The position numbers and the translations under genes were made by a program. From an uncultured delta proteobacterium (GTDB taxonomy: Bacteria > Myxococcota_A > Polyangia > Polyangiales > Polyangiaceae): DNA of 64,000 bases. Below, one piece after another: positions 461-52,190 of the stretch (position 1 is its first letter; each line of letters starts with the position of its first letter). Location of the stretch: the NCBI GenBank assembly GCA_963696385.1, contig CAVOKF010000006.1, positions 64,001 through 128,000 on the forward strand, written 5' to 3'. The notes under the pieces were generated by a model that was not told the DNA's origin, ran no database searches, and saw only the letters and a list, made by a program, of their open reading frames with translations.

Positions 461-489
461 GGCTCACCTCCGTGGTGATGACCAGGTCC

Positions 490-543
490 GTAGGAGTCAT
501 CAGCTCGCCTTGCGGTGAGCGATTTCGGTGAACTCCATCACCG
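490..543 (-). promoter_or_regulatory. Fluoride riboswitch (canonical crcB motif)
   Basis: Minus strand CGGTGATGGAGTTCACCGAAATCGCTCACCGCAAGGCGAGCTGATGACTCCTAC: P1, pseudoknot GGAGT/ACTCC, CTGATG. Confidence 0.93.
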
Positions 544-722
544 TGTGGGCGCGGCTTGAACCCACAACCAAAGCATAGCGGATCGGCGGGCCGGTTGCAC
601 TGCTTCGAGGCTGCGCCGCGACGCGACGAGGTCGCCCGCAAGGCCTGCTTCTGACCGCCAAGAGTCGGCGCTCGGTGACCTCTTGCCAGCCAAGTCGCTT
701 CGCGTTAGGCCGAGAACGTCGA

Positions 723-2017: not shown

Positions 2018-2072
2018 CGCCCGGACCCGAGGTTGCAGCGGTCAGTGGTTTGGGGTACGTAGAGTCACAAGC

Positions 2073-2128
2073 GGTGGTGGAGTCCACCCAAACCGCCGCC
2101 TCCGGCTGAGGCGGCCAATGACTCCTGC
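2073..2128 (+). promoter_or_regulatory. Fluoride riboswitch, G.C variant, upstream of crcB
   Basis: GGTGGTGGAGTCCACCCAAACC-GCCGCCTC/GAGGCGGC-CAATGACTCCTGC. Confidence 0.9.
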
Positions 2129-2191
2129 GGATGCGCCGTGGCACCGTAGGAAGTACGCCATCGGCGCCCCGAATCGTTGGAGGCGAGTGCG

Positions 2192-6546: not shown

Positions 6547-7955
<1,409 letters not shown>

Positions 7956-8160
7956 AAGGCCCTCGCTACTGCAAACGGGAACGCACCGCAAGAGCCGCGG
8001 AGACGAAGCGACCTCATGGTTCGCGCGCATTGACGCGGCTCCACTCGTGATTGGCGCGGCACGACGCGCGCGTGCCCCGCGATGCTCGGGGCGCTCAGGG
8101 CTGGAGTCGAGCAGGGCAAGGGCCTGCCTGAGGACTTCAAGAGCGTCGGGTCGGGCGCGG

Positions 8161-29158: not shown

Positions 29159-29736
29159 ACCGCTTACGATCCGGTGGGACAGGCCAAGGCGAGCGCAAAG
29201 GGCACTCGCAGAGAGGCTCGTTCGAAAAACGCGAATGCGGAGGCGCTCGAACGCTCCGCCAAGAAACTCCAACGGCGGGCTCCTCGCCGCAACAAGATTT
29301 CGGAGGACGTCGCCGTGACATCAATCGTCACGGCCGTCTCCGATGCGCCTTGAGCGCGTAGCCTAAGAGCACCCCATCTGGAGGAACGTTGAACGCGACA
29401 AATTGGTAGAAGCTCTTGCGATCTCCGCTCCGGTGGAGACGTGACTGTACTTCGTGCGAAGAATTGCGTCTCGTTCCACCGCTTCGAATCCAAATCTACG
29501 TCTCGGGCCTTGGACGCGAACTTCGCTGCCCGATGAACGTGAAGAGTCAATCGAGAGGTAGCTCGCCAAGCCGCGCGTTCGGAGCGCTCCCCTTACTGTC
29601 ACCGTGCTCCGGCGCCCTCAAGCGCCGAGAAGGGAAACGTCCATTGCATTCTAAGAACCCAGCTCACTCCGAAACGAAAAATAGAAAACTCTCTGCGCGA
29701 AAACCCTTGCCCACGCCACCGGTTCAGAGTCCGATT
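29159..29736 (+). mobile_element. IS1111 3' fragment
   Basis: Near-identical to 42969-43546. Confidence 0.95.
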
Positions 29737-33155: not shown

Positions 33156-35072
33156 CTGAAGTTCCTGAACCAAAATCGCCGAAGTTCGCGATCTTGCTGT
33201 GGAATCGGCAAAATTGACCCGAAATGTAGGCATGTACGACGATAGAAATAGCTTTCCATTATCGATTCGATGTGCATGATGCGGAGGCATGTACATCGCA
33301 ACCGTGCCGAACCGCGGCTCTCCACCGGCGATCCTGCTGCGCGAGTCGTATCGAGAGGGCGGACGGGTCAAGTCGCGCACGCTGGCGAACCTGTCGTCGT
33401 TGACGGAAAAGCAGGTGGAGGGGATGCGGCGAGCGCTCCGCGGGGAGCCCTTGTTTGGCCCGGACGGGCCGATCCGAAAGGTGCGCGACCAAAGCCACGG
33501 TGCGGTCGACGCCGTTCGGCAAGTCATTCGCAAGTTGGGGCTCGAGGTCCTCATCGACCGACAACCAAGCCGCCAGCGCGATCTGGTGATGGCCCTGTTG
33601 GTGGCGCGCATCACCGATGCCCAGAGCAAGCTCGCGACGACGAGGGCCTGGAAGACCACGACCCTGCCCGAAGACCTCGGGATCGCGGATGCGACCGAAG
33701 ATGACCTGTATGACGCCATGGATTGGCTCTTCGAGCGGCAGGACGCGATCGAGAAGAAGTTGGCGACGCGTCACCTGCGCCAGCAAGGGTTGGTGCTCTA
33801 CGATCTGTCATCGAGCTATTTTGAAGGACACCAATGTCCGCTTGCCAAGCTCGGATACAACCGCGATGGCAAGAAGGGCAAGCTGCAGGTCAACTATGGC
33901 CTTCTCACCGATGAACGGGGCTGTCCCATTGCGGTCCAGGTTTACGAGGGAAACGCATCCGATTCGACGACGCTCCTCGACCAGGTGGAGCGTGTTCGAT
34001 CCGACTTCGGGATTGACGGATTCGTGATTGTGGGTGACCGCGGGATGATCACGGAGAAACAGATTTCGTCGCTTCGCAAAACCGGTGGGATGACCTGGGT
34101 TACCGCGCTCAAGAGCGGTCGCATTCGATCCCTCGTGCACTCGGGCGTTCTGCAACTCGGACTCTTCGACGAACGCAATCTGTTTTCCGTGCGGGACCCA
34201 AAACTTGCCGGTGAGCGGTTGATCGCATGCAAGAACCACGATCTCGCACGATTGCGCGCACACAAGCGCCAGAGCCTTGTCGACGCGACACGCAAAGAAC
34301 TCGACGCGGTGCAGAGAATTGTGGCTCGCGGAAAGCTGGTGGGCAAAGCAGCGATCGGGCTACGGATCGGAAAAGTGATCAACAAGCATAAGGTGGCCAA
34401 GCACTTCTTACTCGACATCCATGATTCCACATTCGAGTATCGCCTCCGCGAGGATCGCATCGCAGAGGAGGCAGCACTCGACGGCGTATACGTGATTCGT
34501 ACGTCCTTGAGCCAAGAGTCGACCAGCGACGAACAGGCCGTTCGCCATTACAAGAAGCTCGCGAATGTCGAACGCGCATTCCGATCCATCAAGACGATCG
34601 ACTTGAAGGTGCGCCCCATTCACCACCACTTGGAAAACCGAGTCCGAGCGCACATCTTCCTGTGCACGCTCGCTTTCTACGTGGAGTGGCACATGCGCGA
34701 AGCGTGGCGACCGGTCCTCTTCTCGGACGAGGACCAGGCTGCCAAGAACACGAGAGACCCGGTCGCGCCGGCCACCCGGTCGCCCGGTGCACTCGATAAG
34801 GTCGCCACCAAGCGAAGCGAGGACGGGGCGCCCGTCCACAGCTTCCGTACCCTGCTCGCCGATCTCGCCACGATCACGCGAAGCACCTTCGCGCCCGTCG
34901 GAGCCGACAACGAAGGCCAGACTTTCACTATGCTGACCGTCCCGTCACCCGAGCAAGCGAGAGCCCTCCAGCTACTCGAAGCCATCGCCGTGTAGGCAGT
35001 AACTCAGGCCACGATTTCGACGAATCCAGGGAAAATACGCCGAATTGTGTCCCGGCGGGCGGGGAACTTCAG
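33156..35072 (+). mobile_element. IS1634-family element
   Basis: IR CTGAAGTTCC/GGAACTTCAG; 6-bp duplication CTTAGG. Confidence 0.93.
33289..34995 (+). CDS. IS1634 transposase
   Basis: YDLSSSYFEG, GYNRDGK, GDRGM, VERAFRSIK. Confidence 0.93.
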   Translation: MYIATVPNRGSPPAILLRESYREGGRVKSRTLANLSSLTEKQVEGMRRALRGEPLFGPDGPIRKVRDQSHGAVDAVRQVIRKLGLEVLIDRQPSRQRDLVMALLVARITDAQSKLATTRAWKTTTLPEDLGIADATEDDLYDAMDWLFERQDAIEKKLATRHLRQQGLVLYDLSSSYFEGHQCPLAKLGYNRDGKKGKLQVNYGLLTDERGCPIAVQVYEGNASDSTTLLDQVERVRSDFGIDGFVIVGDRGMITEKQISSLRKTGGMTWVTALKSGRIRSLVHSGVLQLGLFDERNLFSVRDPKLAGERLIACKNHDLARLRAHKRQSLVDATRKELDAVQRIVARGKLVGKAAIGLRIGKVINKHKVAKHFLLDIHDSTFEYRLREDRIAEEAALDGVYVIRTSLSQESTSDEQAVRHYKKLANVERAFRSIKTIDLKVRPIHHHLENRVRAHIFLCTLAFYVEWHMREAWRPVLFSDEDQAAKNTRDPVAPATRSPGALDKVATKRSEDGAPVHSFRTLLADLATITRSTFAPVGADNEGQTFTMLTVPSPEQARALQLLEAIAV

Positions 35073-35111
35073 CTTAGGGGCTTCCGTTGTCACCGAGCGG
35101 CGAAAGATTGG
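35073..35111 (+). repeat. ~115-bp repeat, copy A 3' part
   Basis: CTTAGGGGCTTCCGTTGTCACCGAGCGGCGAAAGATTGG. Confidence 0.9.
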
Positions 35112-35614
35112 ATGGGGCGGCGGACGCGGGCGGGGACTGAACGAAGCGCGGGGCTACGACGGTACGAACGCGGAGGGTGCCCATGGAAGCGATCTCACGG
35201 ACGATCCAGGTGGACGGTGCCGACATCTACGTCGCGGAGCGTGGGACCGGTGAGCCGCTCCTCCTGCATCACCGAACACCGCGACGACACGCGCAAGGAA
35301 GCGATCGAACACCAAGAGCTTCTTCTCGGGTCGCTTCGGGTCGGAGCTCAAATCGATTCGCCGTTCAGCGACGCTGGCCATACGGGACTGGCGCACCGTT
35401 ACCGGTCAGCGAAGACGCCGTCCGAACCCCTGCTTTCCCGACCCCGACCCCGACCCGCCAGTACGCCCGTAGCCGGACGCAATTCCTGCGGACGTCGGCA
35501 GATCGTTCGCGGAGTGCGGGCTCTGCGGAAAGCCGACCGCCACGAACGGCTCGCCCGATCGGGTCCCTCTCGTCTGCTCTCGCAGGCCCGACTCGTGCTT
35601 CGTTGCAGATCGAC

Positions 35615-40066: not shown

Positions 40067-41206
40067 TTACGGGCTGAGGGGCATAGCGGCCGGCAAGACG
40101 CACGTGTTGCCCACGCAGGAAGGCGCTATTTCGAGAGGGCAAGCGCACTCGCCAAATGCGATTCCGCTCGTGGCCTCTTCGTAGCGAGCCTGCTCGGCGG
40201 CATTCACGGGAGAACCGCCGCAGGCGCACTCCGAGCTGCAAACCTGTCCCGTAAGGATGACGATGCAGTCGGTCGCGACGACACACGATTGATCGTAGGT
40301 CGACAGATCGATGTCGACGCACAGGCCCCCGTCTGCCGCAGGAGGCGTGGTGGCCGCGTCGGCGCAGCCCGCAGGCTGAGTGCTTCCGGCCGCGCAAAGC
40401 GTGCACTGACCGGCCAGGCAGCGGGCTTCTCCCTGGAAGGCGCACGGGCAGCTCTCCAACTTCAAGGGCGCCGTATCGGACGCGAAGCGCGCGGCCGCGC
40501 CCGCGTTGACGGGCGTATCGCCGCATGAGCACTGGCCTATGCAGACTGCGCCCGAGCGGACGAGCTCACAATCTTGATCGCTGCCGCAGGTGAGGTCCGA
40601 TGGGGCCGGTTCGAAGTCGATGCACTGCGATCCCCCGTCGGTCGTCCCCGCGTCGACGCCCGAATCGGCGGTTTTGACTCCCGAGTCCCTGTCGCCTGCT
40701 TCCTCGACGCTGCCGTCCACGACGCCGCCGTCGGCTCCACCCTCCTTGGCCAATGGGGTGCCGGAGTCGGAGCAACCCGACGGCTGATTCGTGATGTCCA
40801 GCCCGCAAAGCGTGCACTGACCGGCTAGACAACGCGGTTCTCCGTCGAAGGCGCAAGGGCAGCTCTCCAAGTTCAAGGTCGCCGTATCGGACACGAAGCG
40901 CGCGGCCGCGCCCGCGTTGACGGGCGTATCGCCGCAGGCGCATCCGCCCTGGCAGACCTGCCCCGTGCGCACGACCGTGCAATCCTGGTCTTGCTCACAA
41001 ACCAAGTCGGCCGCGGTGGCTTCGAAATCAACGCATGCGGCACCGCTGTCGGTCGTGCCGGCCTCGGCGCCCGAATCGGCGGTTTGGGGTCCCGAGTCCT
41101 TGCCGGAGGGCGCTGCTGCGCTGAAAGCGTTGCCCCCACATCCGGCGCCAAGCCACGTCACGAAAAGGATGCGAGCGATGCGGTGAAGAGTGGCGGAGAG
41201 GGGCAT
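40067..41206 (-). CDS. Cys-rich lipoprotein with three internal repeats
   Basis: LGAGC lipobox; three C..D.DC...G.VC...C.CG.P units. Confidence 0.8.
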   Translation of the reverse strand: MPLSATLHRIARILFVTWLGAGCGGNAFSAAAPSGKDSGPQTADSGAEAGTTDSGAACVDFEATAADLVCEQDQDCTVVRTGQVCQGGCACGDTPVNAGAAARFVSDTATLNLESCPCAFDGEPRCLAGQCTLCGLDITNQPSGCSDSGTPLAKEGGADGGVVDGSVEEAGDRDSGVKTADSGVDAGTTDGGSQCIDFEPAPSDLTCGSDQDCELVRSGAVCIGQCSCGDTPVNAGAAARFASDTAPLKLESCPCAFQGEARCLAGQCTLCAAGSTQPAGCADAATTPPAADGGLCVDIDLSTYDQSCVVATDCIVILTGQVCSSECACGGSPVNAAEQARYEEATSGIAFGECACPLEIAPSCVGNTCVLPAAMPLSP

Positions 41207-41677: not shown

Positions 41678-41767
41678 AAGTGCGTCGGTCGACGAAAAGC
41701 CGCGGAAGCGGGCGCGGAAACATATCGCGTCTTAGGGGCTTCCGTTGTCACCGAGCGGCGAAAGATT
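41678..41767 (+). repeat. ~115-bp repeat, copy B (IS1111 target)
   Basis: ...GGAAACATATCGCGTCTTAGGGGCTTCCGTTGTCACCGAGCGGCGAAAGATT. Confidence 0.92.
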
Positions 41768-41981
41768 AGATGAACCGGTGGCGGCGCGTCCTGGACCGCC
41801 CGGCACGCCGCCCGGCACGGGTGCCGCAGCCTCGAGATCGATCGCGGGGCGTCTCGAGAGCAGCCCCCGTGCCGGTCGTCGGTCATCGAAAATAGCGACC
41901 GACCTCCCGCTGGATTATCCATCCGACACCCCCGCGTGCTCAAAGGCACAAAGCGAAGTGGGGGCCGAAGGGAGATCGATC

Positions 41982-43133
41982 ATGCGGAGCATAGGATTGG
42001 ATCTTGGAGCGCGCCACATTGCGTATTGCGAGATACGGAACGGAGAGGTCATCGATCGGACCTCTGTGAAGAGGCTGGACCAACTCAAGTCGCGAATCGG
42101 CCCCGACTGTCCACCTGCGCGGATTGCGTTTGATGCGTCGCGTGAAGGATGGCACGTGCACGATACCCTCACGTCGTGGGGGCACGATGCGAAGATGATC
42201 GATACGACGCGGGTGCGTGCGATGGGCGTCGCGCATCACAAGCGCAAAAACGATGCTCTCGATGCTGAGGCGGCCGCACGTGCCGTAGACCAAGGACGGA
42301 TCCCCGAGGCGCACATTCTGTCTCCCGCCCGCCGAGCCCTGCGCGCGCAGTTGAGCGTGCGCGGCGCGCTGGTCGAAACACGTGCGCAGTATGTGACGAC
42401 GATACGCGGGCTCGGGCGCGCGGCAGGCGTGCTCCTTCCCACATGCACAACCGAGAACTTTGTGAACAAGGTTCGCGAGAGCTCGCTCGACGACGCGACG
42501 AGCACGCTCATCGCGCCGCTCCTTGCCGTGCTCGTCGGAGTCGAAGAAGAGCTCACCAAGGTCGAACGGACGCTTTCGGAAATGGCGATGCGTGAGCCCA
42601 TCACGAAACTTCTCGCCACCGCTCCTGGCGTCGGCCTTATCGTGGCGTCCACCTTCGTTTCGGTGATCGACGAGGCGAAGCGCTTTCGCAATGCGCAGGC
42701 AGTCGGAGCGTACCTTGGTTTGGTGCCGTCGGAGTTGACGACAGGCGGACCTGAAAAGCGGCGCCTGGGCTCGATCACCAAGCAGGGCAACACGTATGCG
42801 AGAAAAATGCTCGTCCAAGCGGCGTGGCTCATCCTCAGGTCACGCGACATGGACGACCCGATTCGCCAGTGGGGCGACCGCATCGCCAAGACGCGAGGCA
42901 AGAGAATCGCCGTCATCGCCATCGCACGAAAACTCGCCGGCGTCCTCTGGGCGATGTGGCGCGACGGCACCGCTTACGATCCGGTGGGACAGGCCAAGGC
43001 GAGCGCAAAGGGCACTCGCAGAGAGGCTCGTTCGAAAAACGCGAATGCGGAGGCGCTCGAACGCTCCGCCAAGAAACTCCAACGGCGGGCTCCTCGCCGC
43101 AACAAGATTTCGGAGGACGTCGCCATGACATGA
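41982..43133 (+). CDS. IS110-family recombinase
   Basis: GLDLG, KNDALDA, PGVG, YLGLVP, ARKL. Confidence 0.95.
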   Translation: MRSIGLDLGARHIAYCEIRNGEVIDRTSVKRLDQLKSRIGPDCPPARIAFDASREGWHVHDTLTSWGHDAKMIDTTRVRAMGVAHHKRKNDALDAEAAARAVDQGRIPEAHILSPARRALRAQLSVRGALVETRAQYVTTIRGLGRAAGVLLPTCTTENFVNKVRESSLDDATSTLIAPLLAVLVGVEEELTKVERTLSEMAMREPITKLLATAPGVGLIVASTFVSVIDEAKRFRNAQAVGAYLGLVPSELTTGGPEKRRLGSITKQGNTYARKMLVQAAWLILRSRDMDDPIRQWGDRIAKTRGKRIAVIAIARKLAGVLWAMWRDGTAYDPVGQAKASAKGTRREARSKNANAEALERSAKKLQRRAPRRNKISEDVAMT

Positions 43134-43520
43134 ATCGTCACGACTGTCTCCGATGCGCCTTGAGCGCGTAGCCTAAGAGCACCCCATCTGGAGGAACGTT
43201 GAACGCGACAAATTGGTAGAAGCTCTTGCGATCTCCGCTCCGGTGGAGACGTGACTGTACTTCGTGCGAAAAATTGCGTCTCGTTCCACCGCTTCGAATC
43301 CAAATCTACGTCTCGGGCCTTGGACGCGAACTTCGCTGCCCGATGAACGTGAAGAGTCAATCGAGAGGTAGCTCGCCAAGCCGCGCGTTCGGAGCGCTCC
43401 CCTTACTGTCACCGTGCTCCGGCGCCCTCAAGCGCCGAGAAGGGAAACGTCCATTGAATTCTAAGAACCCAGCTCACTCCGAAACGAAAAAAAGAAAACT
43501 CTCTGCGCGAAAACCCTTGC
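43134..43520 (+). ncRNA. Putative bridge/seek RNA
   Basis: Position expected for IS1111; stem GAGACGT/ACGTCTC encloses target-matching segments; boundaries approximate. Confidence 0.6.
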
Positions 43521-43547
43521 CCACGCCACCGGTTCAGAGTCCGATTT

Positions 43548-43810
43548 GGCGGCATCACCTTGCGCACTCGCCGTAGCCAGCCGCTACGTCTCGCGATCGC
43601 GGTCACCTGCTCCTCGCCGAGTACTTCCGTAAGCCGTTTCGCATACACGCCGACTCCGGCGCGTGTACTGTTTGATCCGTGCATCGGGGGTCTCCTTTCG
43701 CGTTGTCTCACAACAGCGTCTAGAGAATCCCCGATGCCTTTGACTATCCAATTCGTGCACTATGCACGTAAGTGATCGAGATCACTCGGGAAATAAAGAT
43801 CCTACCTATG
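43548..43810 (-). mobile_element. IS4 end fragment
   Basis: Near-identical to about 45962-46223. Confidence 0.92.
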
Positions 43811-43857
43811 ATCGCGTCTTAGGGGCTTCCGTTGTCACCGAGCGGCGAAAGATTTGG
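43811..43857 (+). repeat. ~115-bp repeat, copy C 3' half (empty IS1111 site)
   Basis: ATCGCGTCTTAGGGG...GAAAGATTTGG. Confidence 0.92.
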
Positions 43858-44747: not shown

Positions 44748-46223
44748 CATAAGTTGGTACTTAGAGATTCGGGATGGCGCTCGCTATCACACAAGTGCGA
44801 GTGGCTCGAGGCCCATAGCGAGACGTCCGCGCTTTCGATCGCGAGCAGGATGAGCGCGGCGCGCGTTGGAATCGAGGAACTTGAGCGTTTCGGCGAGGGC
44901 ACGACGTAGTTGGCGCGGCGAGTCGAGAAGGCCGCGGAGGACATCGTCGAAGTAATGCTTGCCGGACGCGGCGGCTCGCTGGGTCGAAAGCTCCACCCCC
45001 AGCGACGCTTCCGCGAAGTGTGCGAGCGAGCGTTTCAGAAGGGCTGCGAGCAGGCTCGCCCATATCATCGCTTTCGCGATAGCGGCCTTGCCCGTATCGA
45101 AGGCATGAAGGTTGGCGTGGGATTTGAACTCTTTGAACAGGAGTTCCACCTGCCAGCGGAGGCGATACAAGCCGGCCACGTCGGCGGCGGAGAAGCGCTT
45201 GCGAGCGAGGTTGCTGTGCAGGTACACGAACGTCTTCGCGTTGCGCTTGCCGCGCTTGTAGATCGCCACAATTCGGCCGCGATACACGAATGAATTCGCC
45301 TGCCATTCGATGTCGAGATCGACCGTCTGGGCCGGAAGCAGGTCCCAGTTCAACTTCTGGCCGAGCAACTTGGGGATGGATTTGCCGGCGCTGTCGAAAG
45401 CGGCCCGAATGGTGGGTCGAATGTTTTTGGTTCCGCGGACGATGAAGGCGCCGCCCGCTTGGTCGACGTCGAAAAAGAATGTTCGCTCCTCGTACCCTCG
45501 GTCGGCCAGAAAGAGCCGCTCGCGAAGACTCGCGGCCTCGGGACGGTAGGTTCGCTCGGTCTCCTTGTCGGCCGTCAGGGCGACGATGCGCACATCGTCT
45601 TGGAGCAGACTCATCGTGACGTGCAGTTCCACGGCGGCAGGCGAGATTTTTGTAAAGCGGCCCGGCCATGTGCCTTTCAAGTCGTCCTTGAGCGCGAACG
45701 ACGTCCCGTCGTGAATGACGATGTCCCGAAAGGTCGACAGTTTGGGGGACACGGCGTGCAGAACCGGCTGGCTCATCTTCTGTACCGTCGCTTCCAGCAG
45801 CATCCGAAACATCTCTGGAAAGGACGCTTGCGCGAGCCGGTTGTGAAAGGGCTTATATCGCAGCGAAAGGCCCGCGAATTTCCGGAACGTCCGCAGAATA
45901 TCGGCCAACCACTTGGCGTGGCCCGACCCGAGCGTCGACAGCACCGCCACGACCATCGCCAGCGGCATCACCTTGCGCACGCGCCGTAGCCAGCCGCTAC
46001 GTCTCGCGATCGCGGTCACCTGCTCCTCGCCGAGTACTTCCGTAAGCCGTTTCGCATACACGCCGACTCCGGCGCGTGTACTGTTTGATCCGTGCATCGG
46101 GGGTCTCCTTTCGCGTTGTCTCACAACAGCGTCTAGAGAATCCCCGATGCCTTTGACTACCCAATTCGTGCACTATGCACGTAAGTGATCGAGATCACTC
46201 GGGAAATAAAGATCCTACCTATG
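44748..46223 (-). mobile_element. IS4-family element
   Basis: CATA-starting imperfect IRs; 10-bp duplication ATAACCCGTT. Confidence 0.92.
44787..46097 (-). CDS. IS4 transposase
   Basis: HDGTSF, ADRGY, YRLRWQVELLFKEFK. Confidence 0.92.
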   Translation of the reverse strand: MHGSNSTRAGVGVYAKRLTEVLGEEQVTAIARRSGWLRRVRKVMPLAMVVAVLSTLGSGHAKWLADILRTFRKFAGLSLRYKPFHNRLAQASFPEMFRMLLEATVQKMSQPVLHAVSPKLSTFRDIVIHDGTSFALKDDLKGTWPGRFTKISPAAVELHVTMSLLQDDVRIVALTADKETERTYRPEAASLRERLFLADRGYEERTFFFDVDQAGGAFIVRGTKNIRPTIRAAFDSAGKSIPKLLGQKLNWDLLPAQTVDLDIEWQANSFVYRGRIVAIYKRGKRNAKTFVYLHSNLARKRFSAADVAGLYRLRWQVELLFKEFKSHANLHAFDTGKAAIAKAMIWASLLAALLKRSLAHFAEASLGVELSTQRAAASGKHYFDDVLRGLLDSPRQLRRALAETLKFLDSNARRAHPARDRKRGRLAMGLEPLALV

Positions 46224-46429
46224 ATAACCCGTTAGGGGCTTTCGTGGTCCGTGCAACGGCGATTTGGCATCTCCCCGCCCATCTTAGGCTCACACGCAGA
46301 ACGCGTCTTGTCGATCGGTCTGCCGCGAGCACTGCCCCGCGCCTTGTGGAGCCGGCGCCCGCAAGGGATTGCGAGCGCTCTTCTTGCGTGTCCCGCGGCT
46401 GGTCGAGGAGCTCGGGGGCGTGCGCGCAG

Positions 46430-49582: not shown

Positions 49583-50105
49583 AATGGGACTCTGAACCGG
49601 TGGCGTGGGCAAGGGTTTTCGCGCAGAGAGTTTCTATTTTTCGTTTCGGAGTGAGCTGGGTTCTTAGAATTCAATGGACGTTTCCCTTGTCGGCGCTTGA
49701 GGGCGCCGGAGCACGGTGACAGTAAGGGGAGCGCTCCGAACGCGCCGCTTGGCGAGCTACCTCTCGATTGACTCTTCACGTTCATCGGGCAGCGAAGTTC
49801 GCGTCCAAGGCCCGAGACGTAGATTTGGATTCGAAGCGGTGGAACGAGACGCAATTCTTCGCACGAAGTACAGTCACGTCTCCACCGGAGCGGAGATCGC
49901 AAGAGCTTCTACCAATTTGTCGCGTTCAACGTTCCTCCAGATGGGGTGCTCTTAGGCTACGCGCTCAAGGCGCATCGGAGACAGTCGTGACGATTCATGT
50001 CATGGCGACGTCCTCCGAAATCTTGTTGCGGCGAGGAGCCCGCCGTTGGAGTTTCTTGGCGGAGCGTTCGAGCGCCTCCGCATTCGCGTTTTTCGAACGA
50101 GCCTC
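49583..50105 (-). mobile_element. IS1111 3' fragment, inverted
   Basis: Reverse complement of about 43023-43546 with a few SNPs. Confidence 0.93.
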
Positions 50106-50304: not shown

Positions 50305-50411
50305 GGCGAGTAGTAAGCCCAAAGCACGTCGGTCGACGAAGAGCCGCGCAAGCCGCGGTGGAAACATATCGCGTCTTAGGGGCTTCCGTTGTCACCGAGC
50401 GGCGAAAGATT
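50305..50411 (+). repeat. ~115-bp repeat, copy G (IS1111 target)
   Basis: GGCGAGTAGTAAGCCCAAAGCACGTC...GAAAGATT. Confidence 0.92.
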
Positions 50412-52190
50412 AGATGAACCGGTGGCGGCGCGTCCTGGACCGCCCGGCACGCCGCCCGGCACGGGTGCCGCAGCCTCGAGATCGATCGCGGGGCGTCTCG
50501 AGAGCAGCCCCCGTGCCGGTCGTCGGTCATCGAAAATAGCGACCGACCTCCCGCTGGATTATCCATCCGACACCCCCGCGTGCTCAAAGGCACAAAGCGA
50601 AGTGGGGGCCGAAGGGAGATCGATCATGCGGAGCATAGGATTGGATCTTGGAGCGCGCCACATTGCGTATTGCGAGATACGGAACGGAGAGGTCATCGAT
50701 CGGACCTCTGTGAAGAGGCTGGACCAACTCAAGTCGCGAATCGGCCCCGACTGTCCACCTGCGCGGATTGCGTTTGATGCGTCGCGTGAAGGATGGCACG
50801 TGCACGATACCCTCACGTCGTGGGGGCACGATGCGAAGATGATCGATACGACGCGGGTGCGTGCGATGGGCGTCGCGCATCACAAGCGCAAAAACGATGC
50901 TCTCGATGCTGAGGCGGCCGCACGTGCCGTAGACCAAGGACGGATCCCCGAGGCGCACATTCTGTCTCCCGCCCGCCGAGCCCTGCGCGCGCAGTTGAGC
51001 GTGCGCGGCGCGCTGGTCGAAACACGTGCGCAGTATGTGACGACGATACGCGGGCTCGGGCGCGCGGCAGGCGTGCTCCTTCCCACATGCACAACCGAGA
51101 ACTTTGTGAACAAGGTTCGCGAGAGCTCGCTCGACGACGCGACGAGCACGCTCATCGCGCCGCTCCTTGCCGTGCTCGTCGGAGTCGAAGAAGAGCTCAC
51201 CAAGGTCGAACGGACGCTTTCGGAAATGGCGATGCGTGAGCCCATCACGAAACTTCTCGCCACCGCTCCTGGCGTCGGCCTTATCGTGGCGTCCACCTTC
51301 GTTTCGGTGATCGACGAGGCGAAGCGCTTTCGCAATGCGCAGGCAGTCGGAGCGTACCTTGGTTTGGTGCCGTCGGAGTTGACGACAGGCGGACCTGAAA
51401 AGCGGCGCCTGGGCTCGATCACCAAGCAGGGCAACACGTATGCGAGAAAAATGCTCGTCCAAGCGGCGTGGCTCATCCTCAGGTCACGCGACATGGACGA
51501 CCCGATTCGCCAGTGGGGCGACCGCATCGCCAAGACGCGAGGCAAGAGAATCGCCGTCATCGCCATCGCACGAAAACTCGCCGGCGTCCTCTGGGCGATG
51601 TGGCGCGACGGCACCGCTTACGATCCGGTGGGACAGGCCAAGGCGAGCGCAAAGGGCACTCGCAGAGAGGCTCGTTCGAAAAACGCGAATGCGGAGGCGC
51701 TCGAACGCTCCGCCAAGAAACTCCAACGGCGGGCTCCTCGCCGCAACAAGATTTCGGAGGACGTCGCCATGACATGAATCGTCACGACTGTCTCCGATGC
51801 GCCTTGAGCGCGTAGCCTAAGAGCACCCCATCTGGAGGAACGTTGAACGCGACAAATTGGTAGAAGCTCTTGCGATCTCCGCTCCGGTGGAGACGTGACT
51901 GTACTTCGTGCGAAAAATTGCGTCTCGTTCCACCGCTTCGAATCCAAATCTACGTCTCGGGCCTTGGACGCGAACTTCGCTGCCCGATGAACGTGAAGAG
52001 TCAATCGAGAGGTAGCTCGCCAAGCCGCGCGTTCGGAGCGCTCCCCTTACTGTCACCGTGCTCCGGCGCCCTCAAGCGCCGAGAAGGGAAACGTCCATTG
52101 AATTCTAAGAACCCAGCTCACTCCGAAACGAAAAAAAGAAAACTCTCTGCGCGAAAACCCTTGCCCACGCCACCGGTTCAGAGTCCGATT
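50412..52190 (+). mobile_element. IS1111-type element, copy 2
   Basis: Appears identical to 41768-43546. Confidence 0.95.
50626..51777 (+). CDS. IS110-family recombinase
   Basis: Same protein as 41982-43133. Confidence 0.95.
   Translation: MRSIGLDLGARHIAYCEIRNGEVIDRTSVKRLDQLKSRIGPDCPPARIAFDASREGWHVHDTLTSWGHDAKMIDTTRVRAMGVAHHKRKNDALDAEAAARAVDQGRIPEAHILSPARRALRAQLSVRGALVETRAQYVTTIRGLGRAAGVLLPTCTTENFVNKVRESSLDDATSTLIAPLLAVLVGVEEELTKVERTLSEMAMREPITKLLATAPGVGLIVASTFVSVIDEAKRFRNAQAVGAYLGLVPSELTTGGPEKRRLGSITKQGNTYARKMLVQAAWLILRSRDMDDPIRQWGDRIAKTRGKRIAVIAIARKLAGVLWAMWRDGTAYDPVGQAKASAKGTRREARSKNANAEALERSAKKLQRRAPRRNKISEDVAMT

Follow-up and report, generated by a model that had tools for sequence, protein, structure and literature searches.

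Siddiquee et al. (2024) reported RNAs of 82-96 nucleotides (nt) from the downstream region of four insertion sequences (IS) of the IS1111 family (PMC11187229). In the IS1111 seekRNAs, as described there, a complement of the top strand precedes, on the 5' side, a complement of the bottom strand; their target matches overlap, and the order of the two segments is reversed in the IS110 type. Durrant et al. (2024) described donor guides that are built like target guides, with the core included in all four, and predicted that 93.0% of IS1111 elements have bridge RNAs, located at the right end and in many cases with a multi-loop that holds the donor-binding bases (PMC11208160). We have analysed an IS1111-group element in a stretch of 64,000 nt (hereafter the window, whose coordinates we use throughout) from an uncultured delta proteobacterium of the Polyangiaceae (GenBank assembly GCA_963696385.1, contig CAVOKF010000006.1, positions 64,001 to 128,000 of the forward strand). 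We hold with good confidence that the non-coding tail of this element encodes a guide RNA of the known seekRNA/bridge type, in which two short segments, V2 and V3, would serve as the right and the left guide. An earlier note, made from the letters of the window, had proposed that the 3' non-coding region is an IS110/IS1111-type guide-RNA module; this proposal agrees with what we observe, namely a conserved fold, covariation between target guides and flanks, and site-specific copies of the element.

The transposase matches PF01548 (DEDD, RuvC-like N-terminal domain; E 2.4e-8) and PF02371 (Transposase_20 C-terminal domain; E 1.1e-18), scores 217.6 bits with NF033542 ('IS110 family RNA-guided transposase'; cut-off, 140), and contains GLVPSELTTG, which conforms to GL-P----S/TG, a motif given for the C-terminal domain of IS1111-group enzymes (PMC11187229). 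The 12-bp subterminal inverted repeats fall within the 7-17 bp reported for the group (PMC11208160). The gene is followed by 413 nt and preceded by 214 nt (41768-41981) of non-coding sequence, and a longer non-coding region downstream is described as a distinguishing feature of the IS1111 group (PMC11187229, PMC11208160). As judged from this combination of a DEDD transposase, subterminal inverted repeats and a long downstream non-coding region, the element is a member of the IS1111 group of the IS110 family. At 383 aa (383-396 aa in its closest relatives), the transposase is longer than the 330-350 aa given for the group, a range that is descriptive and not defining (PMC11187229), and the surplus is a basic C-terminal tail.

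The closest likeness is to the seekRNAs of ISEc11, ISKpn4, ISPst6 and ISPa11, as far as these are described by Siddiquee et al. (PMC11187229). In both cases the RNA region follows a DEDD transposase gene in an element with subterminal inverted repeats, the short stem-loop is of similar length (82-96 nt published, 89 nt predicted here), the guide order is equal, the two matches converge on the insertion point, repeated sequences serve as targets and relatives have been naturally re-directed through changes in precisely these segments. The likeness is one of described features, between published RNAs and a predicted one, and besides the longer transposase the hosts differ, as the closest public relatives of our element are in Myxococcales and Polyangiaceae metagenome-assembled genomes. 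The IS621 bridge RNA shares the strand choice of its guides (left ones on the bottom strand, right ones on the top), separate modules for target and donor, guides that take in the central dinucleotide and a right-donor guide that pairs discontinuously (PMC11208160, PMC11208158). It differs in guide order (the right guide is 5' here) and in lying at the 5' rather than the 3' end of the element, and the subterminal repeats of the window element are long (PMC11208160). Finally, ISPpu9 of Pseudomonas putida, with its small-RNA gene Ssr9, is described as an IS110-family element in repeated sequences with a small-RNA gene after the transposase and with extra copies of the RNA gene, elsewhere in the genome, that lack a transposase (PMC12288879); by this description, two 3' fragments in the window are their counterparts here.

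Results

Relatives of the transposase were found in 22 of 41 related genomes, and 20 fetched regions were compared together with 80 loci from genome contigs; none of our conclusions depends on L037 (G010), whose genome is flagged as unpublished. The regions that follow the gene align over approximately 230 nt as a conserved scaffold broken by short variable segments. For 14 non-redundant homologues (alignment A2), RNAalifold gave a consensus of 43 pairs, in which 93.6% of cells are paired, compared with 85.4% in shuffled alignments; 19 of the 43 pairs are changed on both sides, in 48 cells, and each of these counts was reached by 0 of 500 shuffles. Sliding the pairing partners by 1-3 columns, as a control, left 25-49% of cells paired. 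These pairing counts are somewhat favoured, since the consensus structure was derived from the same alignment. The hairpin 43307-43351 alone has 12 pairs, seven of them with compensatory changes, whereas the helix that closes the predicted long RNA (GAGC/GCUC) is unchanged in 14/14 homologues and, being invariant, is uninformative for covariation. Invariant U.G and G.U pairs (for example, a U.G pair in 14/14) are compatible with the transposase strand only. The single-sequence minimum free energy (MFE) fold of 43177-43374 returns the consensus layout (-67.1 kcal/mol, z -1.84). The region thus folds in a conserved way on the transposase strand, with support from compensatory changes, which is one of the marks of a seekRNA or bridge RNA. 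Rfam gave no match in 43100-43560 at E up to 10 and none at the gathering score.

Two of the variable segments face each other across the internal loop of a predicted 89-nt stem-loop (43196-43284), and both follow the DNA that flanks the element. Junctions were numbered over the 21 bases that separate the CCGG of one subterminal repeat from that of the other once the ends are joined. V2 is the 8-nt segment two bases ahead of the inner stem, and its reverse complement was compared with right-junction positions 9-16; V3 is the 6-nt segment just ahead of the conserved AAUUGCG, compared with left-junction positions 5-10. In the window element, V3 (GCGAAA) repeats, in the same sense, the left flank together with the first IS base. 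In a first set of elements, V2 agreed with the right junction at 85 of 88 bases (11 types from 13 elements; L024 has no right end), and V3 with the left junction at 55 of 60 (10 types from 12 elements; the left end is missing in L007 and L040, and the junction of L028 was set by hand). The permuted means were 41.3 and 29.7, respectively, and neither observed value was reached in 20,000 permutations.

As these registers had been picked on the sequences of the first set, we turned to an independent set of 80 metagenome loci, for which the rules were fixed beforehand, alignment columns and junction-finding regular expressions being carried over unchanged. A profile match was present downstream of the gene at 60 of the 80 loci and was near-complete at 53 of these 60. 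Among the 46 loci with a right junction, V2 matched at 8/8 bases in 32, at 7/8 in 9 and at 6 or fewer in 5; the 29 new types together gave 206 of 232 matching bases (permuted mean, 104.3; 0/20,000). Among the 36 loci with a left junction, V3 matched at 6/6 bases in 23, at 5/6 in 8 and at 4 or fewer in 5, and the 21 new types gave 105 of 126 (permuted mean, 56.9; 0/20,000). The loop segments therefore covary with the flanks, one for each DNA strand, and meet at the insertion point with registers that overlap at positions 9-10; V2, the top-strand reader, lies 5' of V3, the bottom-strand reader. That GCGAAA(AATT) at 43266 is the left-target guide had been proposed in the earlier note, and the tracking of left flanks by V3 in both sets upholds this part of it.

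The matched flank bases belong to the target, as uninterrupted repeats in the present genome show. For the G005 element, five of six fetched matches show AAACCG-CA-GGACGCC within the flanking repeat of its copies; only these repeat contexts count, because the bare 13-mer was no commoner than its reversed control (7 versus 7). V2 had also been considered as a donor guide for a terminal extension of the IS itself, and this was dropped on account of the same uninterrupted repeats. Single matches within the window carry little information. In 307 of 1,000 dinucleotide shuffles of the non-coding region, an exact match of at least 8 nt to one or other strand of the 21-nt target arose, so the 8-nt match CCAAATCT at 43300 is unremarkable by itself, and GCGAAA is present a second time at 43507. 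It is the comparison with relatives alone that lends these matches significance.

The central positions of the junctions were counted on 29 distinct, well-fitting types, selected from the 35 in which both junctions are present. In 28 of 29 types left-junction position 10 is A, and in 28 of 29 right-junction position 9 is C, from which it follows that these are the first (A) and the last (C) base of the element itself; V3 always ends in A, and the V2 complement always begins with C. In the window element, too, each guide includes one base borne by the IS, C on the right and A on the left. The flank bases at the central two positions are CA in 13 types and differ in the other 16, and among these 16 the guides follow the flank bases in 12/16 and 16/16 cases. 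Each target guide thus matches the product junction, that is, the flank plus one IS base, and not a dinucleotide shared by donor and target. A two-base core common to target and donor at fixed positions was tried and fails in the window element (left AA, right CC) as well as in 16/29 types; in this respect the family of our element is unlike IS621, as its central flank bases need not equal the donor CA. In the subclade of the window element these bases are AC or AA, and the AA/CC pattern recurs in L108, L109 and L170 (transposases 79-87% identical), each with perfectly matching guides.

On the donor side, two further segments resemble the ends of the element. The reverse complement of V4 in the family (CAG..TGGG(G)AT) resembles the conserved left end, CAGATKGGAT, and C2 equals right-end positions 4-9 plus A. 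C2 shifts together with the right end, being AGAGTTA in L006 and ATAGTCG in L009 and L040, and by eye it follows the right end in more distant elements as well (AGACTGG, ACAGAAG, ATACTCG). The donor match at AGAGTC(A) had been called weaker in the earlier note; as its versions in relatives (AGAGTTA, ATAGTCG) change with their right ends, we take it to be probably real. In the MFE fold of the window sequence V4 and AGAGUCA are opposed in an internal loop, which is closed by pairing of 43293-43297 with 43361-43365; this helix appears, by eye, compatible in most homologues. We propose with moderate confidence that V4, the hairpin and C2 form a donor-binding module. Two other candidates for a left-end guide were considered and rejected. 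GATGAAC (43341-43347) has the sense of the left end and is GATGAG in L009, but it forms the 3' side of a helix in which compensatory changes are seen, and in L023 it differs from the left end. CCCCATCT (43182-43189), just 5' of the target stem-loop, complements the family left-end consensus AGATGGG and becomes CCAATT where the left end is AGATTGG (L005, L022); it does not fit in the window element, L021, L006 or L009.

The reading set out in the earlier note was a different one, in which a target loop is closed by GAGACGT (43246) and ACGTCTC (43308), GCGAAAAAUU reads the left and UCCAAAUC (43299) the right side. The strings quoted for it (GAGACGT at 43246, GCGAAAAATT at 43266, TCCAAATC at 43299, ACGTCTC at 43308 and AGAGTC at 43353) are all in place. 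Both segments exist, UCCAAAUCU complements the target AGATTTGG(A) over 8-9 nt, as against 7/8 plus one G.U pair for V2, and the isolated 69-nt segment folds with the proposed stem (-15.8 kcal/mol, z -1.59). Over the 14 homologues, however, the stem 43246-43252/43308-43314 is paired in 29.5% of cells, at or below its controls (shuffle mean, 31.2%; slid controls, 38-53%), a test limited by a 5' arm that lies in a length-variable, poorly aligning hairpin. The 3' arm, for its part, lies in the well-supported hairpin 43307-43351. In the MFE fold of 43177-43374 the ACGTCTC arm pairs instead with 43338-43351, in the helix with seven compensated pairs. Nor does the 43299 position track right flanks: the mean longest match was 2.92 to an element's own flank and 2.81 to those of others (48 types). 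A 7-nt match to the own right flank is present in a related type (L109, L170), and 7 nt was reached in only 2 of the 48 types. L001, L002 and L007 are identical at this position and L028 is one base off, despite different right flanks, and an 8-nt match was frequent in the shuffles described above. The alignment of homologues with a check of loop-target covariation, which the earlier note had proposed, thus favoured its left guide and went against both its stem and its right guide at 43299. The right guide is instead 43209-43216, approximately 90 nt upstream, in another, well-supported stem-loop together with 43266-43271. We regard the model with the 43246/43308 stem as unlikely.

The fit between V4 and the target calls for an explanation of its own. 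The window V4 additionally complements AGATTTGG of the target; its reverse complement, TAGATTTGGATT, is one base off that of L109, L170 and L110 (TAGATTGGGATT), and V4 is one or two substitutions from a family consensus that complements the left-end motif. Because V4 tracks no right flanks and is near this consensus, its 8-nt fit is best explained by a resemblance of the right half of the target to the left end of the family, although V4 may conceivably contact the target as well in the window element.

Contigs from peat metatranscriptomes of three studies cover 42868-43553 (X1), 42986-43386 (X2) and 42916-43393 (X3). They belong to a variant approximately 98% identical to the window element (8-12 differences), in which T>C at 43214 makes V2 a perfect complement of CCGATTTG, the G.U pair becoming G-C. 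X2 stops at 43386; X3 stops at 43393 and is followed by 14 letters that we take to be Illumina adapter. These stops are at most a weak hint at an RNA end 12-19 nt past the closing helix. Further contigs match only the conserved 43336-43375 and then continue with the group-A form of V4, indicating that related RNAs are present as well. Contig depth in X1 and X3 (64-70 in the non-coding region and 2-4 inside the gene) was not used as evidence of level, since contig depth cannot rank the parts of a gene.

These data bear on whether the segments that resemble flanks and ends are features of the DNA, such as protein-binding sites or captured copies of junctions, rather than RNA guides. Transcript evidence comes only from the variant, the promoter scan was empty, and same-sense copies of the ends (AGAGTCA) could in principle come from duplication. 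The segments, however, lie in the single-stranded sides of helices with compensatory changes and strand-specific G.U pairs, which are expected of RNA and not of sites in duplex DNA. V2 is antisense and V3 sense, in fixed registers in 29 and 21 independent types, which is the published arrangement of guides as given in PMC11187229 and PMC11208160, and the region is covered by contigs from RNA libraries. We therefore find a purely DNA-level role very unlikely. As for the guide RNA itself, analogy with the published IS621, ISEc11, ISKpn4 and ISPa11 suggests that it would be made, bound by the recombinase and able to direct recombination.

A BLAST search of the genome returned five full or near-full copies of the IS and several 5'-truncated fragments. 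Three of the full copies are 100% identical and two more are 99.5% identical, with an open 383-aa frame in 5/5. As the earlier note had it, both complete copies in the window read ...GGCGAAAGATT|AGATG at the left and ...AGTCCGATT|TGG at the right, both 3' fragments contain GCGAAGAATT in the loop, and the empty site GGCGAAAGATTTGG is present at 43844-43857. Throughout the genome every left end is preceded by ...GGCGAAAGATT and every right end reads ...CAGAGTCCGATT and then TGG; the right end at C4:1017825 carries a small deletion. Further fragments with the guide-RNA region and the right end and without the transposase are found at C4:1163147-1164493, C6:502-807 and C7:2659-2965.

The possibility that the module is real in the family and that the copy in the window element is a decaying relic, no longer guiding, can be judged on these copies. 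V2 has a G.U pair where the environmental variant has G-C, the two guides of the window element disagree at the central positions, and 5'-truncated fragments are present in the genome. The near-identity of the five full copies and their intact frames speak against decay, as do the identity of V2 in 10/10 genomic copies of the target stem-loop and the recurrence of the AA/CC pattern in L108, L109 and L170, where the guides match perfectly. We consider a relic very unlikely.

The target is a repeat of approximately 50 bp that ends GGCGAA..GATTTGG. A regular expression counted 39 copies in the genome, and CAGAGTCCGATTTG was found nine times. Six of the 39 are occupied, with the left junction of the IS after GGCGAAAGATT; five are empty with GCGAAAGATTTGG, two read GGCGAACGATTTGG, and 11 have other variants at the exact insertion point. 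The remaining 15 copies end GCGAACCGATTTG, and none of these is occupied (0/15). Insertion is site-specific, in a single orientation and without target duplication, the only repeated bases being the 4-nt GATT that is common to the left-end region of the IS and the target. Because GATT is present at both places, the junctions do not separate the boundaries of the earlier note from those of the family geometry, which give an equal 1779-bp unit at 41763-43541 (AGATT...CAGAGTC). The target is accordingly GGCGAA|CGATTTGG by family geometry and GGCGAAAGATT|TGG by the earlier boundaries, and the two cannot be told apart. Predicted circle junctions differ by one base (A or C after CAGAGTC), being ...CAGAGTC + AGATTAGATG by family geometry and ...CAGAGTCCGATT + AGATGAACC by the earlier boundaries; neither form has a match in the assembly, as expected for a chromosome assembly.

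Several observations concern the repeat and the element themselves. Copies of the repeat family (...CGCGTCTTAGGGGCTTCCGTTGTCACCGAGCGGCGAA..GATTTGG) are also present in the window at 35070-35109 and 50372-50411. The repeat is hypervariable exactly where the IS inserts, and its variants may be footprints of insertion and excision. Its final 26 nt resemble the IS right end plus flank with equal spacing (CACCG, 9 nt, CCGATTTGG). One copy runs on, at 35100-35125, into GCGAAAGATT GGATGGGGCGGCGG, which resembles the left end of the family (GATTGGATGAACCGG) and may be what is left of a related element inserted there. Within the 5' untranslated part of the IS, a near-palindrome, GCAGCCTCGAGATCGATCGCGGGGCGTCTCGAGAGCAGC (41826-41864), is shared with L021, L022 and L043, and in L016 it is downstream of the gene. 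Coordinates are collected in Table 1.

Table 1. Positions in the window of the element, its predicted guide-RNA segments, related copies and target repeats.
Feature	Position	Strand	Remarks
IS1111-group insertion sequence	41768..43546	+	1779 bp; boundaries as in the earlier note
Left subterminal inverted repeat	41772..41783	+	12 bp, GAACCGGTGGCG
Transposase/recombinase gene	41982..43133	+	383 aa
Downstream non-coding region	43134..43546	+	413 nt; span of the earlier note
Small 5' hairpin	43155-43158 with 43164-43167	+	Consensus fold
Predicted long guide RNA body	43177..43374	+	Closed by GAGC 43177-43180 / GCUC 43371-43374
Predicted target-binding stem-loop	43196..43284	+	89 nt; candidate short seekRNA
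Outer stem of target stem-loop	43196-43207 with 43275-43284	+	
V2, right-target guide	43209..43216	+	CAAATTGG; complements top strand CCGATTTG at right junction, one G.U
Inner stem of target stem-loop	43219-43222 with 43260-43263	+	GAAG with CUUC
V3, left-target guide	43266..43275	+	GCGAAA 43266-43271 + conserved AAUU
V4, right-donor-guide-like position	43297..43308	+	AATCCAAATCTA; contains TCCAAATC
Conserved hairpin between V4 and C2	43307..43351	+	43307-43318 with 43338-43351
C2, left-donor-guide-like	43353..43359	+	AGAGTCA; same sense as right-end AGAGTC + A
Right subterminal inverted repeat	43524..43535	+	12 bp, CGCCACCGGTTC; reverse complement of left
Target-repeat copy adjoining IS left end	41728..41767	+	
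Empty target-repeat copy	43815..43857	+	Ends GGCGAAAGATTTGG (43844-43857)
Second complete, identical IS copy	50412..52190	+	BLAST of genome
IS 3' fragment	29159..29736	+	IS positions 1202-1779; guide-RNA region and right end kept; V3 = GCGAAG
IS 3' fragment	49583..50105	-	IS positions 1256-1779; guide-RNA region and right end kept; V3 = GCGAAG

The surroundings of the element contain a second type of transposon gene. An IS4-like DDE transposase gene lies at 44787-46124 (-) (PF01609, E 6.9e-17), a 5' fragment of a second copy of an IS4-like gene lies directly right of the IS at 43409-43711 (-), and the 288-bp stretch 43549-43836 recurs at 45962-46249. The target repeat often adjoins the upstream region of the IS4-like gene and is unlike the inverted terminal repeat of that gene. 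Elsewhere in the window, three fluoride riboswitch aptamers (RF01734) occur within 8 kb, at 484-551 (-), 2064-2134 (+) and 7895-7964 (-), and score 52.7, 42.1 and 40.1 bits, respectively (gathering score, 34). An open reading frame of 379 aa at 40067-41206 (-) starts in the manner of a lipoprotein and contains three internal repeats rich in cysteine, and its DNA is repetitive with a period of 411 bp (40393-40579/40804-40990, 83%; 40595-40694/41006-41105, 73%).

Discussion

Our results suggest how the tail of this element may work. The 413-nt region after the transposase gene would encode a guide RNA on the transposase strand, and the 89-nt stem-loop with its internal loop would form the core for reading the target. 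V2 and V3 would jointly specify the insertion point in the ~50-bp repeat, while a second module, consisting of V4, a hairpin and AGAGUCA, may hold the joined ends of the IS.

A number of observations weigh against this interpretation. The folding energy of the whole 413-nt region is no better than that of shuffled sequences (z -0.38), and its sub-regions are only mildly better than shuffles (z -2.19 and -1.84). A scan of 42700-43650 found no sigma-70-like promoter or intrinsic terminator. The RNA contigs are from a close variant and not from this organism, RNA libraries may contain DNA, and contigs reveal no RNA ends, strand or level. In the independent set, 5/46 loci for V2 and 5/36 for V3 fit poorly; they are included in the counts, and some of them are probably junctions misplaced by the regular expressions. 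The target guides of the window element disagree centrally, V3 ending AA and the V2 complement starting CC. The target before insertion is ambiguous, GGCGAAAGATT|TGG being found in five empty copies and GGCGAA|CGATTTGG in two. On the donor side, V4 does not follow variants of the left end (4.38 for its own versus 4.61 for those of others), and the agreement of C2 with the right end, which is equal in every type, was reached in 1,649 of 20,000 permutations, a weak test because there are few distinct types (four).

The behaviour of the central positions raises the question of whether donor and target must share a core. One preprint puts forward top-strand transfer as the main route by which an IS110 element inserts (bioRxiv 10.1101/2025.10.25.684509). 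If only the top strand were transferred and the other strand copied, no shared core would be required, which fits the pattern seen here. We put forward only tentatively, and with more doubt than conviction, that IS1111-type bridge recombination needs no identity between the cores of donor and target; if this is true, the natural insertions described here show that core identity is dispensable for it.

In summary, a guide RNA with the two target guides described here accounts for the occupation by the element of only one variant of the repeat family. RNA-guided IS110/IS1111 recombinases are under development as programmable tools for genome rearrangement, and the IS1111 branch is the less characterised. 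For this branch, the locus and its ~50 relatives are a clean natural data set, which sets the target-guide registers at 8 nt and 6 nt and supplies a consensus fold and many natural re-targetings. It also holds cases in which the flank bases at the crossover are unlike those of the donor, and these could inform both the design of guides and the debate on strand exchange.

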